DNA of 6,333 nucleotides, taken from positions 1 to 6,333 of the forward strand of contig NZ_JAHDSX010000076.1 of NCBI RefSeq assembly GCF_020969955.1, in the 5' to 3' direction. The position numbers were made by a program, and so were the translations under genes. Below are positions 1-6,263 of the stretch, piece after piece. Source of the DNA: Allobaculum fili (GTDB lineage Bacteria > Bacillota_I > Bacilli_A > Erysipelotrichales > Erysipelotrichaceae). The notes under the pieces were generated by a model. It had not been told where the DNA came from. It worked only from the letters and a program-made list of their open reading frames with translations, and searched no databases. Each line of letters opens with the position of its first letter. Within the stretch, counting starts at the first letter, position 1.

Positions 1-22
1 AATAGATTTTTAGAAAAAAGTG

Positions 23-43
23 AAAAAACTCGAATCATTCGAG
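23..43 (-). terminator. Weak intrinsic terminator, distal member of a tandem pair (minus strand)
   Basis: CTCGAA(29-34)/TTCGAG(38-43) form a 6-bp stem with a 3-nt loop. On the minus strand it is followed by T6 (A23-A28 on plus) and then a second T-run. The tail TAGAAAAAAG is duplicated exactly at 11-20 and 59-68. Confidence 0.35.
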
Positions 44-61
44 ATTTGACTTGAAGAGTAG

Positions 62-98
62 AAAAAAGACCACATCACTGCTTAACGCTGATGTGGTC
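62..98 (-). terminator. Rho-independent terminator (minus strand)
   Basis: Perfect 10-bp stem GACCACATCA(68-77)/TGATGTGGTC(89-98) with an 11-nt loop. On the minus strand it is followed directly by T6 (A62-A67 on plus). There is no T-run on the plus side. Confidence 0.7.
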
Positions 99-134
99 TG
101 AGAAATCTTAACTTAATGACATTGCTTATCATTC

Positions 135-217
135 GGAAGCAGCCCAGCTTCCAAAAATGCGTTCCTTGCCCAGGACGCATGATCCTCTGCTCATTCGCCC
201 GTGCAGAGGATTTTTTT
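135..217 (+). ncRNA. Candidate small RNA ending at the 182-217 terminator (5' end undefined)
   Basis: Three consecutive stem-loops: GGAAGC(135-140)/GCTTCC(147-152); GCGT.CCT/AGG.ACGC (159-178, one G-U or bulge); and the terminator 182-217. A -10-like TATCAT lies at 127-132 with no convincing -35. No SD-led ORF. The region is antisense to anything reaching the minus-strand terminator at 62-98. Confidence 0.2.
182..217 (+). terminator. Rho-independent terminator (plus strand)
   Basis: Perfect 9-bp stem ATCCTCTGC(182-190)/GCAGAGGAT(203-211) with a 12-nt loop, followed by T7 (211-217). On the minus strand it is preceded, not followed, by the homopolymer run, so it is plus-specific. Confidence 0.75.
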
Positions 218-282
218 ATGGGCACAAAATGCATTGGTCATTTCCGTAAGCTCAATCAGAAAACCGTTTTGGAGGACGGAAA

Positions 283-310
283 TAACGGGACGGTGCGGTG
301 TAACGGGACG
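283..310. repeat. Direct repeat TAACGGGACG x2 (283-292 and 301-310), 8-nt spacer
   Basis: Exact 10-mer read twice. The second copy runs into the 8-bp palindrome GGACGTCC (306-313). Function unknown. Confidence 0.8.
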
Positions 311-464
311 TCCTGGATCGAAAGAAAATGAGGAGGCGGTCGAAAGACTATGTATTCCATTTACGCATAAAAAATCGAAACAGCTTTCATTTCAGAGGCA
401 AATTGCCTTTATTCTCGTGAAGCTTGTTCAAGACGTCAGGGGCGGATAAAAAGTCAAGCGTTAA

Positions 465-494
465 TTGAAATATTCTAAAAATAGACGTTAAGAT
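465..494 (+). promoter_or_regulatory. Possible sigma-A-type promoter (plus)
   Basis: TTGAAA (465-470), an 18-nt spacer, then TAAGAT (489-494), which matches the -10 consensus at 4 of 6 positions. It would start a transcript near nt 501. Confidence 0.25.
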
Positions 495-544
495 AAGACC
501 GTGGAAATCAAAGCAGCAGATTTCCAATAATAATAATTTTTTCA

Positions 545-574
545 ATCATAATTTTTTTTCTTTCTTTTTCTCAA
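545..574 (-). promoter_or_regulatory. Possible sigma-A-type promoter (minus)
   Basis: On the minus strand: TTGAGA (574->569), an 18-nt spacer, then TATGAT (550->545, 5 of 6 to the -10 consensus). It would start a leftward transcript near nt 538 that could run to the terminators at 62-98 and 23-43. Confidence 0.3.
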
Positions 575-580
575 TAATTT

Positions 581-620
581 ACACAGAACACCCGGACCGC
601 CCATCCGGGTGTTTCTGTGT
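581..620 (+). terminator. Very strong hairpin, terminator-like
   Basis: ACACAGAACACCCGGA(581-596)/TCCGGGTGTTTCTGTGT(604-620): 16 bp with one bulged T and loop ccgccca. If only the GC-rich upper stem forms, the 3' arm supplies a UGUUUCUGUGU tail on the plus strand. There is no clean U-tract beyond the stem. Confidence 0.45.
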
Positions 621-636
621 CTGATGAAAAGAAATT

Positions 637-650
637 CTCTTTTAACTCTC
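637..650. repeat. 14-nt exact repeat CTCTTTTAACTCTC, copy 1 (partner at 1305-1318)
   Basis: Identical 14-mers at 637-650 and 1305-1318, each within about 20 nt of a strong terminator hairpin. Confidence 0.85.
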
Positions 651-732
651 ATTTTAGGTAAGGATCGGATACTGATCGTGGTCAGAGAAAGCCTCTGGTC
701 AAAGAAGCTGAATACAATTCAGGACTTCTTAT

Positions 733-744
733 TTCCTTTCTTCT
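733..744. repeat. 12-nt exact polypyrimidine repeat TTCCTTTCTTCT, copy 1 (partner at 1026-1037)
   Basis: Identical 12-mers at 733-744 and 1026-1037. The sequence is low-complexity, so a chance match is more likely than for a mixed sequence. Confidence 0.7.
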
Positions 745-765
745 CTTTTCATAATTTTCAATACC

Positions 766-798
766 GAAAAGTACCGGTTTGCCCGACCGGTACTTTTC
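766..798. terminator. Bidirectional-type terminator hairpin
   Basis: Perfect 13-bp stem GAAAAGTACCGGT(766-778)/ACCGGTACTTTTC(786-798) with loop ttgcccg. The A4/T4 flanks of the GC core give a short U-tract on either strand. Confidence 0.55.
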
Positions 799-928
799 AT
801 ATGCGGATGTATGAGAAACCGGAAGGCCGGATTCTGCGCGAACCGAGATCGCCGATAGAAGAGCTTCTGCCTAACGCCTGCTGTTTGGAAGCTGGGCGGG
901 ACTGGGATCTCTTTTTGCGCGGCATTTT

Positions 929-957
929 TTGTCTGAAAATTCTTTTTTGGTTTTAAT
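929..957 (+). promoter_or_regulatory. Possible sigma-A-type promoter (plus)
   Basis: TTGTCT (929-934), a 17-nt T-rich spacer, then TTTAAT (952-957, 5 of 6 to the -10 consensus). The predicted start is near nt 964. Confidence 0.3.
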
Positions 958-1025
958 TCGGCATAGAGGGTAAGAAATCGTCCGGTTTGAATAACCTGTG
1001 TTCTGGAGGTGCTGTTTCCTGATCG

Positions 1026-1037
1026 TTCCTTTCTTCT
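1026..1037. repeat. 12-nt exact polypyrimidine repeat TTCCTTTCTTCT, copy 2
   Basis: Identical to 733-744. Confidence 0.7.
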
Positions 1038-1304
1038 TTGACTGGACGACGCGGAGTGGATTTCTTCTGTCGCTGAGGCTGTGCACTCCCTGCTTTCTGC
1101 GGTTTCGGAGCGTATGCGATCCCACAAAAACAAGACCGAGGGAAGGCGAAATCCGCTCGTGAAATGACAAATGCTGCACCTTAATACCGTCTTAATAAAA
1201 ATGGGCATTGGAAAGCGTCTGACTTGCGTCAGTTGATATATTGAATTCGGGAAGAGACATAACGTTGGGTCAGCGCAGCGGCTGATCAATCCCTTCCATA
1301 TTTC

Positions 1305-1318
1305 CTCTTTTAACTCTC
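1305..1318. repeat. 14-nt exact repeat CTCTTTTAACTCTC, copy 2
   Basis: Identical to 637-650. It lies in a 37-nt G-free tract (1285-1321) immediately 5' of the terminator at 1326-1362. Confidence 0.85.
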
Positions 1319-1325
1319 TACGTAA

Positions 1326-1362
1326 TTGAAAAAGAAGGGTTGTGGCGGCCCTTCTTTTTCAA
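1326..1362. terminator. Rho-independent terminator, strong on plus and also usable on minus
   Basis: Perfect 14-bp stem TTGAAAAAGAAGGG(1326-1339)/CCCTTCTTTTTCAA(1349-1362). The GC core GAAGGG/CCCTTC is followed by T5 on the plus strand, with a second T6 at 1367-1372. Its A5 5' flank makes it symmetric. Confidence 0.75.
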
Positions 1363-1413
1363 TGCCTTTTTTGAAAAAACGGATGGGGCAGGAGGTTTGC
1401 GGGAGACGACAAA

Positions 1414-1444
1414 TTGAGAGCCCTGTGTGAATGCGTTTTATAAG
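1414..1444 (+). promoter_or_regulatory. Possible promoter of the 1483-2940 gene
   Basis: TTGAGA (1414-1419), a 17-19-nt spacer, then TTTATAAG (1437-1444, containing TATAAG and TTATAA). Confidence 0.35.
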
Positions 1445-1482
1445 CTGTTTCTGTTTAAGCGGTTTTTTGTTACGCTTTGACC

Positions 1483-2940
1483 ATGATGACTCCCAATTCG
1501 CCTAAGAATACAAAAAAGCCTGTTTCTGCGAAGAACACGGGCAAAAACAGAAAAAGAAAACGCAGGCTGACTCGAAAAGGAAAGATTGCACTCACGGTTG
1601 CGGTTTTAGTTATCGTCCTTTGCATCAGCCTTCTCTTTATGCGCCAGCCTTCGGTTGCAGAACGGCTTTCGCTTACCTATCTGGACTCCCTTACCCTCTC
1701 GGATCTCAACTCCAAACCGCAGGAAAGCTATGCGGATAAAACGCGTGTGGGCGACTACACGGTTTACGGTACGTCCCTTGTGTTTTACGATCAGACGTAT
1801 TCTCCTCTGGAAACCGACGGCTATTTTGGACGCAACGTCAAGCTGGTCAATATTAAAACCGGAGAAGAAATTACGACGACCTTTACCGGCGGCGGAGATA
1901 GTGGAATCGACTTGCAGAACCTGCCCGCCGGCGTTTATGAAGTGTATCTGACTAACGGCTATACGTACGCAAGAGCCTACAGCGATGAGGAAATGCACTC
2001 CTCTCCGCTGATTACGATGCGAAACGACAAGAAAGTCTCCAGCGTGCAGGTGGATGCTTCGAAAGACTATCTCGACAAGTTTAGCATCGACACCGATGAA
2101 AACTACATCTTTCTGACGGTAACGGAATCGCTGCCGATTGTGAAAGTGACCGATGTGGTCATCGACCCTTCCGGCTATCTGGTCGATCCAAACGGCATGC
2201 CTCTCGAATGGTACAGTGAGGGCAGCTTTGACGAGAGCGAGCACAGCTGGGAATTCGCTCAGCGTATTGCCAGATATCTCGAAAGCGCCGGGCTTCGCGT
2301 CACGTTCTCCCGCGATAAGGAAGAACTCAAAGGCTACGCAGGAGAAAACTCCCGCGCAGGGATCGGCTACTCTTCGCAGGCAAAAATCTTTTTGTCGCTG
2401 ACGATGAGCGATGCCGAGCAGCCCTATCCATATATGATCAGTTCGCCATTTACCAACGGCGTTCTGGGCAATTCGATTTCCAGCGCGCTTTTGAGCGATG
2501 GAATTTTGCTGAGCACGCCCGTAGTCTCTTCCCAGCTGAATATTGGAAATACGTACGACCAGCTCACTGTGGACGAGGCGTATGAGCTCGAACCGTATTC
2601 GCTGTTTCCGGCACTGCGCGAAACCGGCGGCCGTCTGACGAGCGCCGGCCAGAGCGAGCAGTGGAAAGCCAATGAGATGTTCTCCCAATCGTATGGAATG
2701 AACTCGCTGGTGTTCTGCTACGCGTCCAGTCAGAATGAAGCATCCAGAACGTATTTTCTGGAAAACGAAGATACGCTGGCCCGCGGAATCGCGCAGGGCA
2801 TTCTCAATGCCTGCGGCTATTCGATTACGCTTGACGAAAATTCCATTTCCCATGAGGAGGAAAGCCATTCCCAGACAACCGCTTCGCAAAGTGCGGCGGC
2901 TGCGTCTTCTGACTCGCCCGAAGACACTCCTTCCGAGTAA
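1483..2940 (+). CDS. Single-pass membrane protein with a beta-rich extracytoplasmic domain and a degenerate (probably non-catalytic) Amidase_3-like domain
   Basis: Long ORF (tracked from TTG 1477; ATG at 1483 and 1486; TAA at 2938-2940). It has a K/R-rich N-terminus, then a hydrophobic helix IALTVAVLVIVLCISLLFM (nt 1585-1641). The C-terminal half aligns by eye to the Amidase_3 pattern: VVIDPSGY..DPNG vs IDPGHGG.DPG; E.SWEFAQRIARYLESAGLRVTFSRD vs EkdlnL.iA..l...L...G..V.lTRd; AKIFLSLTMSD vs adlfiSiHaNa; ALRETGG vs vLre; SLVFCYASSQNE vs avLvElgFlsN.e; ARGIAQGI vs A.aia.GI. Acidic, Ser-rich tail. No SD upstream, so the start is uncertain. Confidence 0.85.
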   Translation: MMTPNSPKNTKKPVSAKNTGKNRKRKRRLTRKGKIALTVAVLVIVLCISLLFMRQPSVAERLSLTYLDSLTLSDLNSKPQESYADKTRVGDYTVYGTSLVFYDQTYSPLETDGYFGRNVKLVNIKTGEEITTTFTGGGDSGIDLQNLPAGVYEVYLTNGYTYARAYSDEEMHSSPLITMRNDKKVSSVQVDASKDYLDKFSIDTDENYIFLTVTESLPIVKVTDVVIDPSGYLVDPNGMPLEWYSEGSFDESEHSWEFAQRIARYLESAGLRVTFSRDKEELKGYAGENSRAGIGYSSQAKIFLSLTMSDAEQPYPYMISSPFTNGVLGNSISSALLSDGILLSTPVVSSQLNIGNTYDQLTVDEAYELEPYSLFPALRETGGRLTSAGQSEQWKANEMFSQSYGMNSLVFCYASSQNEASRTYFLENEDTLARGIAQGILNACGYSITLDENSISHEEESHSQTTASQSAAAASSDSPEDTPSE

Positions 2941-2958
2941 AATAAGCAGGAAAAAAAC

Positions 2959-3015
2959 AGGATCCTGAATCCGCCGGCTTTCATAGTGAAATCGGCCAAG
3001 AGGAGGATCCTTTTT
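2959..3015 (+). terminator. Rho-independent terminator of the 1483-2940 gene
   Basis: Composite hairpin: outer 8 bp AGGATCCT(2959-2966)/AGGATCCT(3004-3011), middle GCCG(2973-2976)/CGGC(2993-2996), inner TTTCA(2979-2983)/TGAAA(2987-2991) with a tri-loop, followed by T5 (3011-3015). Confidence 0.6.
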
Positions 3016-3069
3016 CTACGAAACGAAAAAGCCGAAGTACGGCTACTCCCATATCCGTCGTTTCCATGC

Positions 3070-3125
3070 GAAAAACGATACATCTCGTTTTTAATGCGTT
3101 ATGGAATCGGCAGAAAAACGATACA
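3070..3125 (+). promoter_or_regulatory. ABC-F 5' leader element: 13-nt direct repeat flanking a shared complementary segment
   Basis: GAAAAACGATACA occurs exactly at 3070-3082 and 3113-3125. TCGTTTTT (3085-3092) can pair 8 bp with AAAAACGA of either copy (3071-3078 or 3114-3121). Copy 2 abuts the SD AGAAAGGAAA (3125-3134). Confidence 0.3.
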
Positions 3126-3138
3126 GAAAGGAAATCCC

Positions 3139-5049
3139 ATGAAACTGCAGGTATCCAATTTATATAAGTCCTATGGCGCCCAGGACGTTCTGTCCAATGC
3201 AAGTCTGCAGGTCAAAGGCACCGAAAAAATCGGTCTGGTCGGGCGTAACGGATGCGGAAAAACAACGCTCCTCAACATCATCAGCGGAAAAGAAGATTTT
3301 GATCGCGGCGAAAGAATTGTCCCCAACGCGGTCCGGATCGGTTCACTGTCCCAGACCGTCTTTGAAGATAAAAATCAGACCGTTTTAGAAGCGCTCGAAG
3401 ACGTCTTCTTTGAACTGCGCAAAGTCGAAGCGGAACTGGCGCGGCAGGCGGAAGTGCTCGCGGAAGATTCCAGCGAAAAGCAGCTGGAAAAATACGACCG
3501 GCTTCAGACCCGTTTTGAATCGCTGGGCGGCTACGACTACGAACACGAAATGCGCAGCGTCTTCTTCCATTTTGGTTTTGAAGAAAGCGATCTTTCCAAA
3601 AAAATCAATGAGTTTTCTTCCGGTCAGCAGACCCGCATCGCGCTCGTAAAGCTGCTGCTGGAAAAGCCGGACGTTCTGCTGCTCGACGAGCCGACCAACC
3701 ATCTCGATCTGGATTCGATTGAATGGCTCGAAAGCTATATCAGCCGCTATCCAAGCGCCGTCATTCTCGTCAGCCATGACCGTATGTTTCTCGACCAAGT
3801 GTGCGATGAAATTGTCGAAATTGACCGCGGAAAAACGATGCGCTTTCCAGGCAGCTATTCTCACTACGTCAAAGCCAAGGAAGAGTGGATTAAGAAAAAC
3901 CACGACACCTACGTCCGTCAGCAGGAAGAAATTGCCCGTCTGGAAGCTCTGATTGAAAAATTTCGCTACAAGCGATCCAAGGCTGCGTTTGCCCAGTCCA
4001 AAATCAAATATCTCGACCGTATGGAAAAGCTCGACGATACGACCGCGGACAAATCGCGGATCAAAGCGGAGTTTTCCAGCGAACGCAAAGGCGGAAACCG
4101 GGTTCTGGAAGCAGAAGGCCTGACGTTTGGCTATGACCATCCGCTTTCAACGGTGAGCTTTGAACTGTTCCGTCAGAACCGCATCGGCATTGTCGGCCCG
4201 AACGGCATCGGCAAGTCGACCTTGCTAAAAACGCTGATTGGAAAGATCCCGCCTTTAGGCGGTCAGTTTGCGTTCGGCCATCAGATCGATATCGGCTACT
4301 TTGATCAGGAAACTGCCGCCATGCATTCCAGCAAGACCGTAATCGATACGCTCTGGGACGATCAGCCAGAAGCAAGCCAGACGCAGATCCGTTCCGTACT
4401 GGCTGCGTTCCTGTTTACCCAGGATGAGGTGTTCAAGGAAGTGAACGATCTGTCCGGAGGCGAAAAAGTCTGTCTCTCGCTCGCCCGTCTGATGATGAAT
4501 CACGATAACCTTCTGATTCTTGACGAACCGACCAACCATCTCGATATTCCAGCCAAAGAAGCTCTCGAAGCCGCGCTTAAAAACTATGACGGCACGCTGC
4601 TGTTCGTTTCCCACGACCGTATGTTCCTGTCCAAAATGGCCGATAAGGTTCTTGAAATCGGCGAGGACAGTCATCTTTATGACTGCTCGTATACCGAATA
4701 CGCGCAAAAGAAAAAAGAGGGAACGCTCGATTCCCTCAAAACAGCTGAAGTCCCGGCCTCTTCGCGCCGCGGCCGTACGCCGGCTGCAGCGCCCGCTCCC
4801 AAAACGGCTGCGCAGCTGCGTCAGGAGAAAAACACCCTTTCCAATCGCGTGACCAAACTCGAAGCCATGCTGGAAAAAGCCGAAGCTGAGCTGGAAGAGC
4901 TGCGTGAGCTTCGCTACGATCCGGAATATTATCAGGACTATCGCAAGATGGAAGAACTCGATGGCCGGATTGACGATAAGCATAACGAGATTGCGGCCTA
5001 TACGAAGGAATGGGAAGAGAAGATGTCCGCTCTTGAAGAGATGAGCTGA
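3139..5049 (+). CDS. ABC-F family ATPase (two ABC domains, no TMD, Uup/YdiF-like C-terminal coiled coil); probable translation or ribosome-associated factor
   Basis: ATG 3139 is preceded by AGAAAGGAAA with a 4-nt gap. The tracked start at 2986 is a GTG inside the upstream terminator. NBD1: Walker A GRNGCGKTT, signature FSSGQQ, Walker B LLLDEPTNHLD, H-loop VSHDR. Inter-domain linker ...RQQEEIARLEALIEKFRYKRSKAAFAQSKIKYLDRMEKL. NBD2: GPNGIGKST, LSGGEK, LILDEPTNHLD, VSHDR. A P/A-rich spacer precedes a heptad-like acidic/basic tail. TGA at 5047-5049. Confidence 0.93.
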   Translation: MKLQVSNLYKSYGAQDVLSNASLQVKGTEKIGLVGRNGCGKTTLLNIISGKEDFDRGERIVPNAVRIGSLSQTVFEDKNQTVLEALEDVFFELRKVEAELARQAEVLAEDSSEKQLEKYDRLQTRFESLGGYDYEHEMRSVFFHFGFEESDLSKKINEFSSGQQTRIALVKLLLEKPDVLLLDEPTNHLDLDSIEWLESYISRYPSAVILVSHDRMFLDQVCDEIVEIDRGKTMRFPGSYSHYVKAKEEWIKKNHDTYVRQQEEIARLEALIEKFRYKRSKAAFAQSKIKYLDRMEKLDDTTADKSRIKAEFSSERKGGNRVLEAEGLTFGYDHPLSTVSFELFRQNRIGIVGPNGIGKSTLLKTLIGKIPPLGGQFAFGHQIDIGYFDQETAAMHSSKTVIDTLWDDQPEASQTQIRSVLAAFLFTQDEVFKEVNDLSGGEKVCLSLARLMMNHDNLLILDEPTNHLDIPAKEALEAALKNYDGTLLFVSHDRMFLSKMADKVLEIGEDSHLYDCSYTEYAQKKKEGTLDSLKTAEVPASSRRGRTPAAAPAPKTAAQLRQEKNTLSNRVTKLEAMLEKAEAELEELRELRYDPEYYQDYRKMEELDGRIDDKHNEIAAYTKEWEEKMSALEEMS

Positions 5050-5105
5050 TCCGCAAAGAAAGAAGATATCGGCAGACATCCGTCTTCTTTTGCGGATCTG
5101 GTTTT
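5048..5105 (+). terminator. Long hairpin overlapping the ABC-F stop codon; probable terminator
   Basis: GATCCGCAAA(5048-5057)/TTTGCGGATC(5089-5098) plus AGAAGA(5061-5066)/TCTTCT(5083-5088), with a 3-nt bulge. It is followed by TGGTTTTCC, a T4 run offset by 3 nt, so the U-tract is sub-optimal. Confidence 0.45.
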
Positions 5106-5206
5106 CCTGTCTCAAGGGGATCGGCTCGTTTGTTCAAAGATCGTTCTGGTGCTTTCCTGCCGGATTCAGGAGAAACGCATCTTTTCCATATCAAATCATG
5201 AACAAG

Positions 5207-5240
5207 AAAGCGTCCGATCGAAGAGATCGGGCGCTTTTGT
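5207..5240. terminator. Bidirectional terminator between the convergent ABC-F and SDR genes
   Basis: AAAGCGTCCGATC(5207-5219)/GATCGGGCGCTTT(5225-5237): 13 bp with loop gaaga. One T-G pair on plus becomes a C-A mismatch on minus. TTTTGT follows on plus and TTTCTTGTT on minus. Confidence 0.7.
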
Positions 5241-5355
5241 CTGGAAAGGAAATCGGTCTGTCCGCGTGCCGTGCCTGGCATGGCCTCGGTCGGGATTCGA
5301 TCGGTTATCCAGTGAGAATTCTTTTTGATTTTGCCTTTTGACCCGCGTACAAGGC

Positions 5356-6111
5356 TTAGGAAATCCAGCCGCCGTCGACGACGAGCACGTCGCCGGAAAC
5401 GTAGGAAGACTGATCGGAAGCGAGGAAGAGCGCTGCGTTGGCGATTTCTTCCGGGGCTCCGGGTTCTGGAGACATTGCCAGCATTTTCGATACTTTTCCA
5501 TAGCCGTCCATGTTCGGCATGCCCATGGAAGTGCTGATTTCCGTGGCGATTCCGCCTGGAGCGATGGCGTTGCAGCGAATGCCGTCTGCCCAGTACATGA
5601 AGGACGTGTTCTTGGTCATGGAAATGAGGGCAGCTTTGGAGGCGCAGTAGATCACGCCGGCTACATTTCGCATGCCGCCGACCGAAGCGACATTGACGAT
5701 GGAGCCTTTGGTTCCTTTTTCCTTGAAGACTCTGACAGCCTTGCGCATGGCGCACATCGGGCCGAATACGTTGACTTTCATGACGTGATCGAATTTTTCA
5801 TCGGTCGCATCGGCTACGCCGGCCATGTCGTCCATGACGCCCGCATTGTTGATCAGAATATCGAAGCCGCCGAACGTTTCCAGACAGAAATCAATCATGG
5901 CGTCATTGTTTTCTGCGACGGATACGTCCGCTGCGAAGATTTCGACTTTTCCTGGCGCGTCGCTCAGCGATTCCTTGAGCGCTTCGAGGCGTTCCTTACG
6001 ACGGGCAACCGCTGCGACATTCGCGCCTTCCTTCACGAAACGTTCGACGATGGCTTTGCCCATGCCGCTCGAGGCACCGGTCACCACCGCGCATTTTCCT
6101 TCTAATAACAT
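5356..6111 (-). CDS. Classical short-chain dehydrogenase/reductase (SDR), FabG-like; substrate unknown
   Basis: 251 aa. Motifs: TGASSGMG (TGxxxGxG cofactor motif), NNAG, Ser (VASVGG) plus YCASK (YxxxK catalytic motif), PGGIAT. The ATG (6111->6109) is preceded by AAGGAGAG (6124->6117) with a 5-nt spacer. TAA at 5358->5356. Confidence 0.93.
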   Translation of the reverse strand: MLLEGKCAVVTGASSGMGKAIVERFVKEGANVAAVARRKERLEALKESLSDAPGKVEIFAADVSVAENNDAMIDFCLETFGGFDILINNAGVMDDMAGVADATDEKFDHVMKVNVFGPMCAMRKAVRVFKEKGTKGSIVNVASVGGMRNVAGVIYCASKAALISMTKNTSFMYWADGIRCNAIAPGGIATEISTSMGMPNMDGYGKVSKMLAMSPEPGAPEEIANAALFLASDQSSYVSGDVLVVDGGWIS

Positions 6112-6125
6112 TGGTACTCTCCTTG

Positions 6126-6141
6126 CCGGCTTGAACGCCGG
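6126..6141 (-). promoter_or_regulatory. Small GC hairpin in the SDR 5' UTR, just upstream of the SD
   Basis: CCGGC(6126-6130)/GCCGG(6137-6141) with a 6-nt loop. It lies between the TATAAT box and the SD, close to the predicted 5' end of the mRNA. Confidence 0.35.
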
Positions 6142-6153
6142 GTTTTGTCTACC

Positions 6154-6159
6154 ATTATA
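6154..6159 (-). promoter_or_regulatory. Consensus -10 box (TATAAT) for the SDR gene
   Basis: Perfect TATAAT on the minus strand (6159->6154), 42 nt upstream of the ATG. No acceptable -35 at 16-19 nt. A perfect TTGACA (6219->6214) sits 54 nt upstream, too far to pair with it. Confidence 0.4.
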
Positions 6160-6167
6160 GCCGCTTC

Positions 6168-6181
6168 ATTATGAATTATGA
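6168..6181. repeat. Tandem heptamer ATTATGA x2 (TCATAAT x2 on minus)
   Basis: Exact tandem copies at 6168-6174 and 6175-6181. A related ATTATAG at 6154-6160 carries the -10 box. Confidence 0.7.
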
Positions 6182-6263
6182 TAAGGCTTGCAGATTCCCC
6201 GAACGAATGTAAGTGTCAAACAATCGACGGGTATACGCGAGACTGAATATTAGATACGCTAAA

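Follow-up and report, generated by a model that had tools for sequence, protein, structure and literature searches.

A 6,333-nucleotide (nt) stretch of Allobaculum fili DNA (contig NZ_JAHDSX010000076.1), here called the window in its whole length, carries at positions 502 to 1372 three modules that we read, with a probability of about 0.72, as members of an Allobaculum-specific family of independently transcribed small RNA (sRNA) genes, whose products likely block Shine-Dalgarno (SD) sequences. The array is tandem, with all members on the same strand, and lies between a gene for an NlpC/P60 cell-wall hydrolase and an amidase-like gene. Each sRNA gene would be driven from a sigma-70-type promoter of its own and encode a 5' stem-loop, a G-free and CU-rich tract of 25-60 nt that stays unpaired, and an intrinsic terminator. 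The CU-rich tract (AAUUUCCUUUCUUUUUUCUCUUAA in the copies designated type A, UUUCCAUUAUUUCCUCUUUUAA in those designated type B) would pair in trans with purine-rich SD and start-codon regions, thereby blocking 30S binding and repressing translation. Multiple siblings may provide dosage or slightly different seeds, and the conserved C-rich loop of the terminator (YCGCCC) may constitute a second contact site.

Layout of the modules

The preliminary description of this DNA, made from the letters alone, had reported three plus-strand modules of the same architecture (hairpins, a G-free CU-rich linker, a terminator-type hairpin). All the hairpins that it listed are present, at 502-526 (-7.7 kcal/mol), 581-620 (-25.0), 680-700 (-6.2), 704-728 (-5.3), 766-798 (-19.8), 1268-1287 (-9.9) and 1326-1362 (-21.7), and its G-free runs are exact (520-585, 66 nt; 724-765, 42 nt; 1285-1321, 37 nt). 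No other G-free run of at least 28 nt occurs across the 6,333 nt of the window. Among 1000 dinucleotide-preserving shuffles, of positions 1-1476 or of the whole window, none contained three G-free runs of at least 37 nt or one of at least 66 nt, the longest run averaging 25-26 nt. The layout is therefore borne out, but the modules are not equivalent: module 1 is of type A, module 2 is divergent and module 3 is of type B.

Compared with shuffled sequence, folding of the full modules on the plus strand is far more stable, with z-scores of -6.57, -5.52 and -3.4 for modules 1, 2 and 3, respectively, and modules 2 and 3 fold better on this strand than on the minus strand (z = -3.09 and -1.9). The GGTCAG said to open hairpins in both of these modules is found at 680 and 1268. 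G-U pairs valid on the plus strand only had also been claimed, and indeed GGUCAGAG/CUCUGGUC and GGUCAGC/GCUGAUC contain G-U pairs that turn into A-C mismatches on the minus strand.

The strings reported as shared between linkers were located as well (CTCTTTTAACTCTC at 637 and 1305, TTCCTTTCTTCT at 733 and 1026), and CATAATTTT is shared between 547 and 750, but neither the 637-650 copy of the 14-mer nor the 1026-1037 copy of the 12-mer falls within an intact module. Considered as extra modules, both were discarded, the former having no hairpin context and a score of at most 6 bits with the covariance model described below, the latter lying in a stretch devoid of hairpins with a 6-bit match. The sequences concerned, ATTCTCTTTTAACTCTC at 637-650, which nearly repeats the tract of module 3, and GTTCCTTTCTTCTTTG at 1015-1037, have no flanking hairpins and may be decayed remnants of further modules. 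Positions 1-1476 contain no credible open reading frame (ORF), no tRNA or tmRNA in a scan, and no Rfam match at E up to 1, and a structured RNA at 225-345 is unsupported (fold z = -0.58).

A multi-copy family in Allobaculum

When the non-coding region was compared with related loci by BLAST, the only matches were to the hairpin of module 1, present several times per locus, and to module 3, present as a single syntenic copy, while 12 copies of one layout were spotted by eye in six related loci. A covariance model, R1, was built from 15 copies; with E below 1e-6, it recovered 35 matches from Allobaculum-like loci, 29 of them distinct, and beyond these some weaker copies of type B and of the divergent kind. 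Its matches to the three modules of the window are all on the plus strand and agree with the boundaries described earlier.

Arrays of 3-7 copies, each at one locus, occur in at least six Allobaculum lineages. Under our locus labels, seven copies were counted at L006, six at L005, six at L068, 4-5 at L002, four at L007, three at L003 and five in the species of the window. The type A copies of L007 are inverted with respect to the flanking genes, and are thus independent of read-through. The search of related genomes proposed in the preliminary description therefore finds the layout and the CU motif conserved as multi-copy arrays, and the three-member sibling array that it suggested is supported by the comparative data, except that the species has five members and not three. 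Unrelated coding genes (118-573 amino acids) stand between sRNA copies at L006 (3906-6102), L002 (5932-7653) and L068 (4397-6879), which makes the array an insertion hotspot in some species.

To what extent can a model score alone identify a member? As a negative control, 776 kb of unrelated metagenome DNA selected for a hairpin-plus-TTYCTTTC pattern was used: among the metagenome matches listed for GGAAATC-N6-10-GATTTCC-N2-30-TTYCTTTC, about nine loci were true copies, and the others, mostly due to chance, formed the control. The best R1 score there was 32.8 bits, and all remaining matches reached at most 25 bits. Module 1, with 73.4 bits, is accordingly an unambiguous member of the family, whereas modules 2 and 3 need support beyond their scores.

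Two trivial origins raised in the preliminary description were not borne out. Genome-wide low-complexity sequence is not indicated, as R1 exceeds 26 bits only in this array within the 20-kb stretches from the same species, and decayed 3' ends of genes are not either, as no ORF is conserved on either strand. The set had been called unnamed, and no Rfam 15 family matches the window (E up to 1) or the L003, L007 and L068 copies (E up to 5), the csRNA, LhrC and RsaE families included. Nothing similar was matched in viral contigs, plasmids or phages, and no literature on sRNAs of Allobaculum or Erysipelotrichaceae was found.

Structure, strand and promoters

Covariation was measured on an alignment (A4) fitted to R1, a fitting that inflates the figures somewhat: 98.3% of cells are paired overall and 97.7% in the terminator, with compensatory changes in all nine terminator pairs. 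None of 500 shuffles attained the observed covariation score, and when the register was slid as a control the paired share dropped to 33-71%. Over both helices, 33 cells hold G-U and 4 hold A-C, an asymmetry that is not expected otherwise and designates the plus strand as the folded one. The CU core is predicted to be unpaired (mean probability 0.86), and the terminator loop reads CGCC, CACC or GCCC in 24 of the 29 copies. Seed and terminator loop being conserved while the stems change, selection seems to bear on single-stranded sequence.

The 15 aligned type A copies, which come from seven loci, all have a TAnnnT -10 hexamer whose spacing to GGAAAUC is constant (8 nt, or 7 in a single copy), and in most of them TG is found 1 nt upstream of the hexamer. 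From the -10 box back to the upstream A-rich block, no consistent hairpin or -35 element was found. T[AT]AAG boxes precede about half of the type A promoters (for example at L002 5140-5160, L006 6560-6590 and L003 1200-1230), often followed by the A-rich block and a GAGCG- or GGGCG-like element; in module 1 of the window (412-450) they are present in degenerate form only. In a positional analysis made post hoc, these boxes lie at -91, -69, -58 and -26 from the 5' hairpin, that is, at multiples of 11 bp, with 5.6 times the background density. Such phasing suggests that a common response regulator of the OmpR type could control the array.

Type A, type B and a divergent copy

Read from 5' to 3', the type A unit shows the -10 box, then the hairpin GGAAAUC-(A)AGCAGCR-GAUUUCC, which the tract (U/A)AAUUUCCUUUCUUUUUUCUCUUAA follows, and lastly, after a spacer of variable length, a terminator with the loop YCGCCC. 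The loop of the 5' hairpin (AAGCAGCAG) is purine-rich and not CU-rich, and the 24-nt consensus of the tract, AAUUUCCUUUCUUUUUUCUCUUAA, is near-invariant across paralogues and species. No type A copy contains an AUG. Transcription of module 1 is predicted to start at about 501-502 (the coordinates of all elements are given in Table 1). Its seed, at 552-572, varies within the species: the window and L166, which both bear an insertion sequence (IS), have UUUUUUUUCUUUC, and the IS-free contigs have UUUUUUUCCUUUC, the strain difference being UUUCUUUC in the two former versus UUCCUUUC in L164, L165, L167 and L168.

Module 2 combines a canonical seed (AUUUCCUUUCUU) and a GCCC terminator loop with 5' hairpins unlike those of type A. 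Its sequence is identical in five contigs of the species, no orthologue was found outside the species, and it is probably a divergent sibling.

Type B copies are syntenic, lying directly upstream of the amidase-like gene at L002, L003, L005, L006 and L068, with a diverged version at L007. The element TGnTATAnT aligns in the window and in the first five of these loci, while in the L007 box, TGTATAGT, TG abuts TATAGT. The 5' stem is GUCAGC/GCUGAU in the window versus AACCAG/CUGGUU in the others, around a common GCGGCUG; the tract UUUCCAUUAUUUCCUCUUUUAA is almost invariant (CUUCCAUAUUUCCUCUUUUAAC in the window), and the long terminator holds U-G pairs in 6/6 sequences. The complement of this tract, AAAAGAGGAAAUAAUGGAAAG, resembles a ribosome-binding site together with its AUG, so that the tract would be both anti-SD and anti-start. 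A CAU stands ahead of the CU tract in type B and also in several of the type A copies (modules 1 and 3 of the window, L002 5209 and 7713), most type A copies being devoid of it.

Table 1. Elements of the sRNA array and neighbouring features in the window (positions are those of the window).
Feature	Position	Strand	Remarks
Right end of insertion sequence	1-124		terminal inverted repeat CTTAACTTAATGACATTG at 107-124
3' remnant of a long type A gene, promoter-less	125-216	+	fold of 100-232, z = -3.55
Module 1 promoter (predicted)	465-494	+	-35 TTGAAA (465-470), 18-nt spacer, -10 TAAGAT (489-494); consensus scan
Module 1, type A sRNA gene (predicted)	502-620	+	R1 match 497-618, 73.4 bits, E = 2.4e-10; fold z = -6.57
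Module 1 5' hairpin	503-525	+	GGAAAUC-AAAGCAGCA-GAUUUCC
Module 1 unpaired G-free tract	526-580	+	contains CAUAAUUUUUUUUCUUUCUUUUUCUC
Module 1 terminator	581-620	+	inner stem 589-611, loop ACCGCCCA
Module 2 -10 box (possible)	668-673	+	GATACT
Module 2, divergent family member	680-802	+	R1 match 697-802, 31.4 bits; E = 0.008 over 537 kb, 9.4e-5 within the window
Module 2 hairpins	680-700 and 704-728	+	
Module 2 unpaired tract	729-765	+	canonical seed AUUUCCUUUCUUCUCUUUU (731-749), then CAU
Module 2 terminator	766-798	+	loop UUUGCCCGA, weak U-tail
Module 3 extended -10 element	1234-1242	+	TGATATATT; predicted transcription start about 1249-1250
Module 3, type B sRNA gene (predicted)	about 1249-1372	+	R1 match 1262-1363, 26.4 bits; syntenic conservation
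Module 3 hairpin	1268-1287	+	GGUCAGC-GCAGCG-GCUGAUC, downstream of a purine-rich 5' leader
Module 3 unpaired tract	1294-1314	+	contains UUCCAUAUUUCCUCUUUUAAC; anti-AUG and anti-SD
Module 3 terminator	1326-1362 and U-run	+	
Membrane-anchored amidase-like protein	1483-2940		weak Amidase_3 match, 19.8 bits, below the Pfam cut-off
ABC-F translation-initiation region	3125-3141	+	AGAAAGGAAAU (3125-3135), CCC, AUG
ABC-F ATPase	3139-5049		
Short-chain dehydrogenase	right of ABC-F	-	

Predicted pairing with translation-initiation regions

The CU tracts had been described as complementary to purine-rich SD regions. This was examined in the 20-kb neighbourhoods by comparing initiation regions with internal coding windows of the neighbouring genes, and pairing is indeed better at initiation than at internal sites (p about 1e-5), 25-40% of the former versus 4-11% of the latter reaching -10 kcal/mol or lower with the seeds. 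However, composition-matched shuffled seeds come close to the real ones in their pairing with initiation regions, which makes the complementarity largely compositional: the anti-SD potential is real but generic.

As an example of a site that could be occluded, and not as a demonstrated target, the initiation region of the ABC-F gene may be cited. Its AGAAAGGAAAU is the exact 11-nt complement of AUUUCCUUUCU, the seed of module 2, and the energy of its duplex with the type A seed is -16.6 kcal/mol here, orthologues ranging from -10 to -18. In A. stercoricanis (L007, 4061-4088), the initiation region of the AsnS-like synthetase gene forms 17 bp with the type A seed (-18.8 kcal/mol). No specific target was singled out among the neighbours, as both genes pair well but so does about one third of initiation regions. 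Two other candidates were rejected as specific targets, the NlpC/P60 gene, whose canonical AAGGAGGA pairs only moderately, and the amidase-like gene, which has no SD. SD sequences of the AGAAAGGA type seem to be common in the genus.

By analogy with the streptococcal csRNAs and with LhrC of Listeria, occlusion of SD and start codon in trans would be the most likely mechanism. A more ambitious version, which we hold to be rather unlikely, would have the array act as an anti-SD regulon under a response regulator, that is, as a dosage-tunable global brake on translation. The seeds (...UUUCCUUUCU...) would then copy the 3' tail of 16S rRNA (CCUUUCU) and compete with ribosomes for AGAAAGGA-type SDs, and the system would have evolved independently of the csRNAs while converging with them down to the T[AT]AAG direct-repeat promoters. 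In this version, the invariant 5' hairpin, in which GGAAAUC and GAUUUCC amount to an SD-like sequence paired to an anti-SD copy, could itself act as a built-in switch or as a handle for a protein.

Besides the behaviour of shuffled seeds, several observations weigh against a family of SD-blocking sRNAs. The 5' hairpin is without covariation, its pairing being backed by invariance and by nine distinct copies in which U-G (GGUUUCC) replaces U-A. Promoters and terminators are consensus matches, and since A-runs as well as U-runs flank the terminators, their tails alone cannot give the strand. The scores of modules 2 (31.4 bits) and 3 (26.4 bits) lie within the range of unrelated DNA selected by regular expression, and the membership of module 2 is mainly one of layout, its terminator having no good U-tail and its promoter being unclear. 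Finally, the module 1 seed of the window has lost the CC of the canonical UUUCCUUUC core, and the fourth copy of the species is split by an IS (see below), so individual copies are dispensable or decaying.

Alternative explanations

What else could account for such an array? The transcribed RNAs might be decoys or sponges for a protein that binds pyrimidine tracts (for example S1, a KH-domain or cold-shock-type protein, or Rho), with no mRNA pairing at all. The largely compositional complementarity to initiation regions would fit this, as would the resemblance of the G-free, C-containing tracts to Rho-binding sites, and a high copy number with an invariant 5' hairpin is typical of protein-titrating RNAs such as CsrB and RsmZ. 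We nevertheless find it improbable: the exact order of the 24-nt tract is kept across species and paralogues, which is more than a protein reading composition would need, the CAU-N5-CCUC of type B mirrors an SD followed by AUG, and no candidate protein can be named.

In seven lineages, type B (module 3) invariably shares the strand of the amidase-like gene and precedes it by 100-250 nt, which, together with a terminator at its end as in an attenuator, raises the question of whether type B could be a cis-acting 5' leader of that gene. The start of the amidase-like gene speaks against it. Across five lineages (window 1467-1488, L002 about 8260-8285, L007 about 8515-8542, L005 about 8110-8136, L068 about 9380-9403), this gene has no SD, and a -10-like element (TGTTACGCT, TGTTAGTCT, TGTTACTCT, GATACT or TGTTAATCT) lies 6-7 nt before the ATG, which makes a promoter of its own and a leaderless mRNA probable. 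Its start is probably ATG 1483, and not TTG 1477 or the downstream ATG called in L164. As no alternative antiterminator pairing was seen either, and layout and motif are common to type A copies that no gene follows, a cis-acting leader is a still weaker candidate than a decoy.

Non-transcribed intergenic repeats (REP-, BOX- or MITE-like elements, or duplicated terminator cassettes) would likewise be multi-copy and hairpin-rich, and would explain why copy number varies between strains and species, with IS elements and foreign genes inserted among the copies. All recovered copies of known context are nonetheless at one syntenic locus, with one strand per array, and no terminal inverted repeats or target-site duplications surround the units, the only such signature being that of the IS at 1-134. 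A repeat of this kind is also hard to reconcile with a -10 box at fixed distance, the 33 to 4 excess of G-U over A-C, a single-stranded tract more conserved than the stems, and the lack of similar sequence in viral, plasmid and phage collections; taken together, this makes it very unlikely. Least credible of all is a minus-strand signal, in which the purine-rich complements would serve decayed genes or tiny ORFs (MIEKIIIIGNLLL*, MKREERK*, MEGIDQPLR*) as ribosome-binding sites: each tract does read there as an AG-rich, SD-like stretch with an ATG within a few nt, and a 186-amino-acid ORF is listed at 729-1289, but in consensus type A copies the purine tract is not followed by an ATG, 1-2-nt indels alter the frame and length of the type B mini-ORF between L003, L005 and L068, a terminator hairpin directly upstream of each putative SD leaves no space for a promoter, G-U pairs become mismatches, and the 186-amino-acid ORF crosses module boundaries and has no conserved counterpart.

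Relation to known small RNAs

The family of SD-blocking sRNAs proposed here has two close counterparts in design. The cia-dependent small RNAs (csRNAs) of Streptococcus, 2-6 siblings per genome, are preceded by a CiaR box, NTTAAG-N5-TTTAAG, that ends 10 nt upstream of the -10 element, and their occlusion of SD and start codon in trans has been shown experimentally (PMC3091779). As in Allobaculum, they are several related genes, each with a promoter, a 5' stem-loop, an unpaired anti-SD/anti-AUG (CAU) stretch and a terminator, about 50-200 nt long and most similar to one another in the unpaired region; the promoters, with direct repeats of the T[AT]AAG type, are reminiscent of a site for OmpR-family response regulators. 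Unlike them, however, the predicted Allobaculum sRNAs carry UUUCCUUUCU as anti-SD instead of a CCUCC-type sequence, and have no CiaR box at its defining position, the -26 box being 7 nt from the -10 element without a partner 11 nt upstream. Their genes form one tandem array, whereas csRNA genes are spread over several loci, and their host belongs to the Erysipelotrichia and not to Streptococcus.

In Listeria monocytogenes, LhrC1-5 (with Rli22 and Rli33-1) are tandem siblings whose single-stranded CU-rich regions bind the SD regions of mRNAs (PMC5880928). The Allobaculum family shares with them the tandem copies, the CU-rich single-stranded segment as well as the terminator loop, which in LhrC is one functional C-rich site and which is of the YCGCCC type in 24 of the 29 Allobaculum loops. 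The array, which lies between two cell-wall hydrolase-like genes, may have a link to the cell envelope; in Listeria, LhrC is regulated by LisR and induced under cell-envelope or heme stress. The two differ in the 5' loop, AAGCAGCAG not being CU-rich, so that only two of the three CU-rich sites of LhrC have counterparts, in the much longer (25-60 nt) and U-rich single-stranded tract of Allobaculum, and in phylogenetic class. RoxS/RsaE of Bacillus and Staphylococcus is another Firmicute sRNA in which C-rich unpaired motifs, including loops, pair with SD regions, a feature shared with the present family, but it is single- or two-copy, has CCCC or UCCC motifs and possesses no long U-rich tract.

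The family is well supported and apparently unreported, with a design familiar from csRNAs and LhrC. We regard it as new given the lack of an Rfam match, of a CiaR box at the defining position and of a CU-rich 5' loop, the different taxon, and the silence of the literature. Members of Allobaculum degrade mucin in the gut and have been linked to colitis and to host metabolism. If the proposed reading is correct, an array of 3-7 siblings would give this genus a well-defined and directly testable post-transcriptional regulon, and would represent an independent example of the csRNA/LhrC design outside Bacilli, bearing on why a design in which numerous siblings carry an anti-SD seed plus a terminator loop rich in C recurs in Gram-positive bacteria. 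The R1 model and the alignments could seed a new Rfam family.

Genomic context and strain differences

The order of genes around the array is conserved: Rex, a T-box with the AsnS-like synthetase, the NlpC/P60 hydrolase with choline-binding repeats, the long intergenic region, the amidase-like gene and ABC-F. Relatives of the ABC-F protein assign the window to Allobaculum (Erysipelotrichaceae); an exact match for that protein was not on record, but the dehydrogenase protein led to contigs of the same species. The window matches L166 (CP078088.1) over its full length (99.65%, 22 gaps), while four other contigs of the same species match it only over 125-6208. In L166 (11062-14467), ABC-F is called as three fragments and the amidase-like gene as two; as these ORFs are intact in the window and in the four other contigs, the fragments look like homopolymer indel errors and not pseudogenes.

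The left edge of the window is the right end of an IS, present in L166 (with DDE_Tnp_1 transposase genes) and absent from the four other contigs, and is followed by a 10-bp target-site duplication, CTTATCATTC, at 125-134. A hairpin at 66-100 with a minus-strand T-run belongs to this IS end. Beyond it, the remnant of a type A gene retains hairpins at 135-152 (loop AGCCCA) and 157-180 (loop UUGCCCA), and a terminator at 184-209 with a U-run (loop UUCGCCCG). The intact version of this fourth member is found in L164 (16047->15896, 60.4 bits) as a long variant of about 150 nt, so that the sibling, split by the IS, is probably inactivated in the strain of the window. A fifth member (L164, 16950->16849, 73.9 bits) lies beside the NlpC/P60 gene, about 740-840 nt to the left of the window start in IS-free strains. 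Between the fifth and fourth members, an 86-amino-acid ORF without Pfam match is called in L164 (16108-16368).

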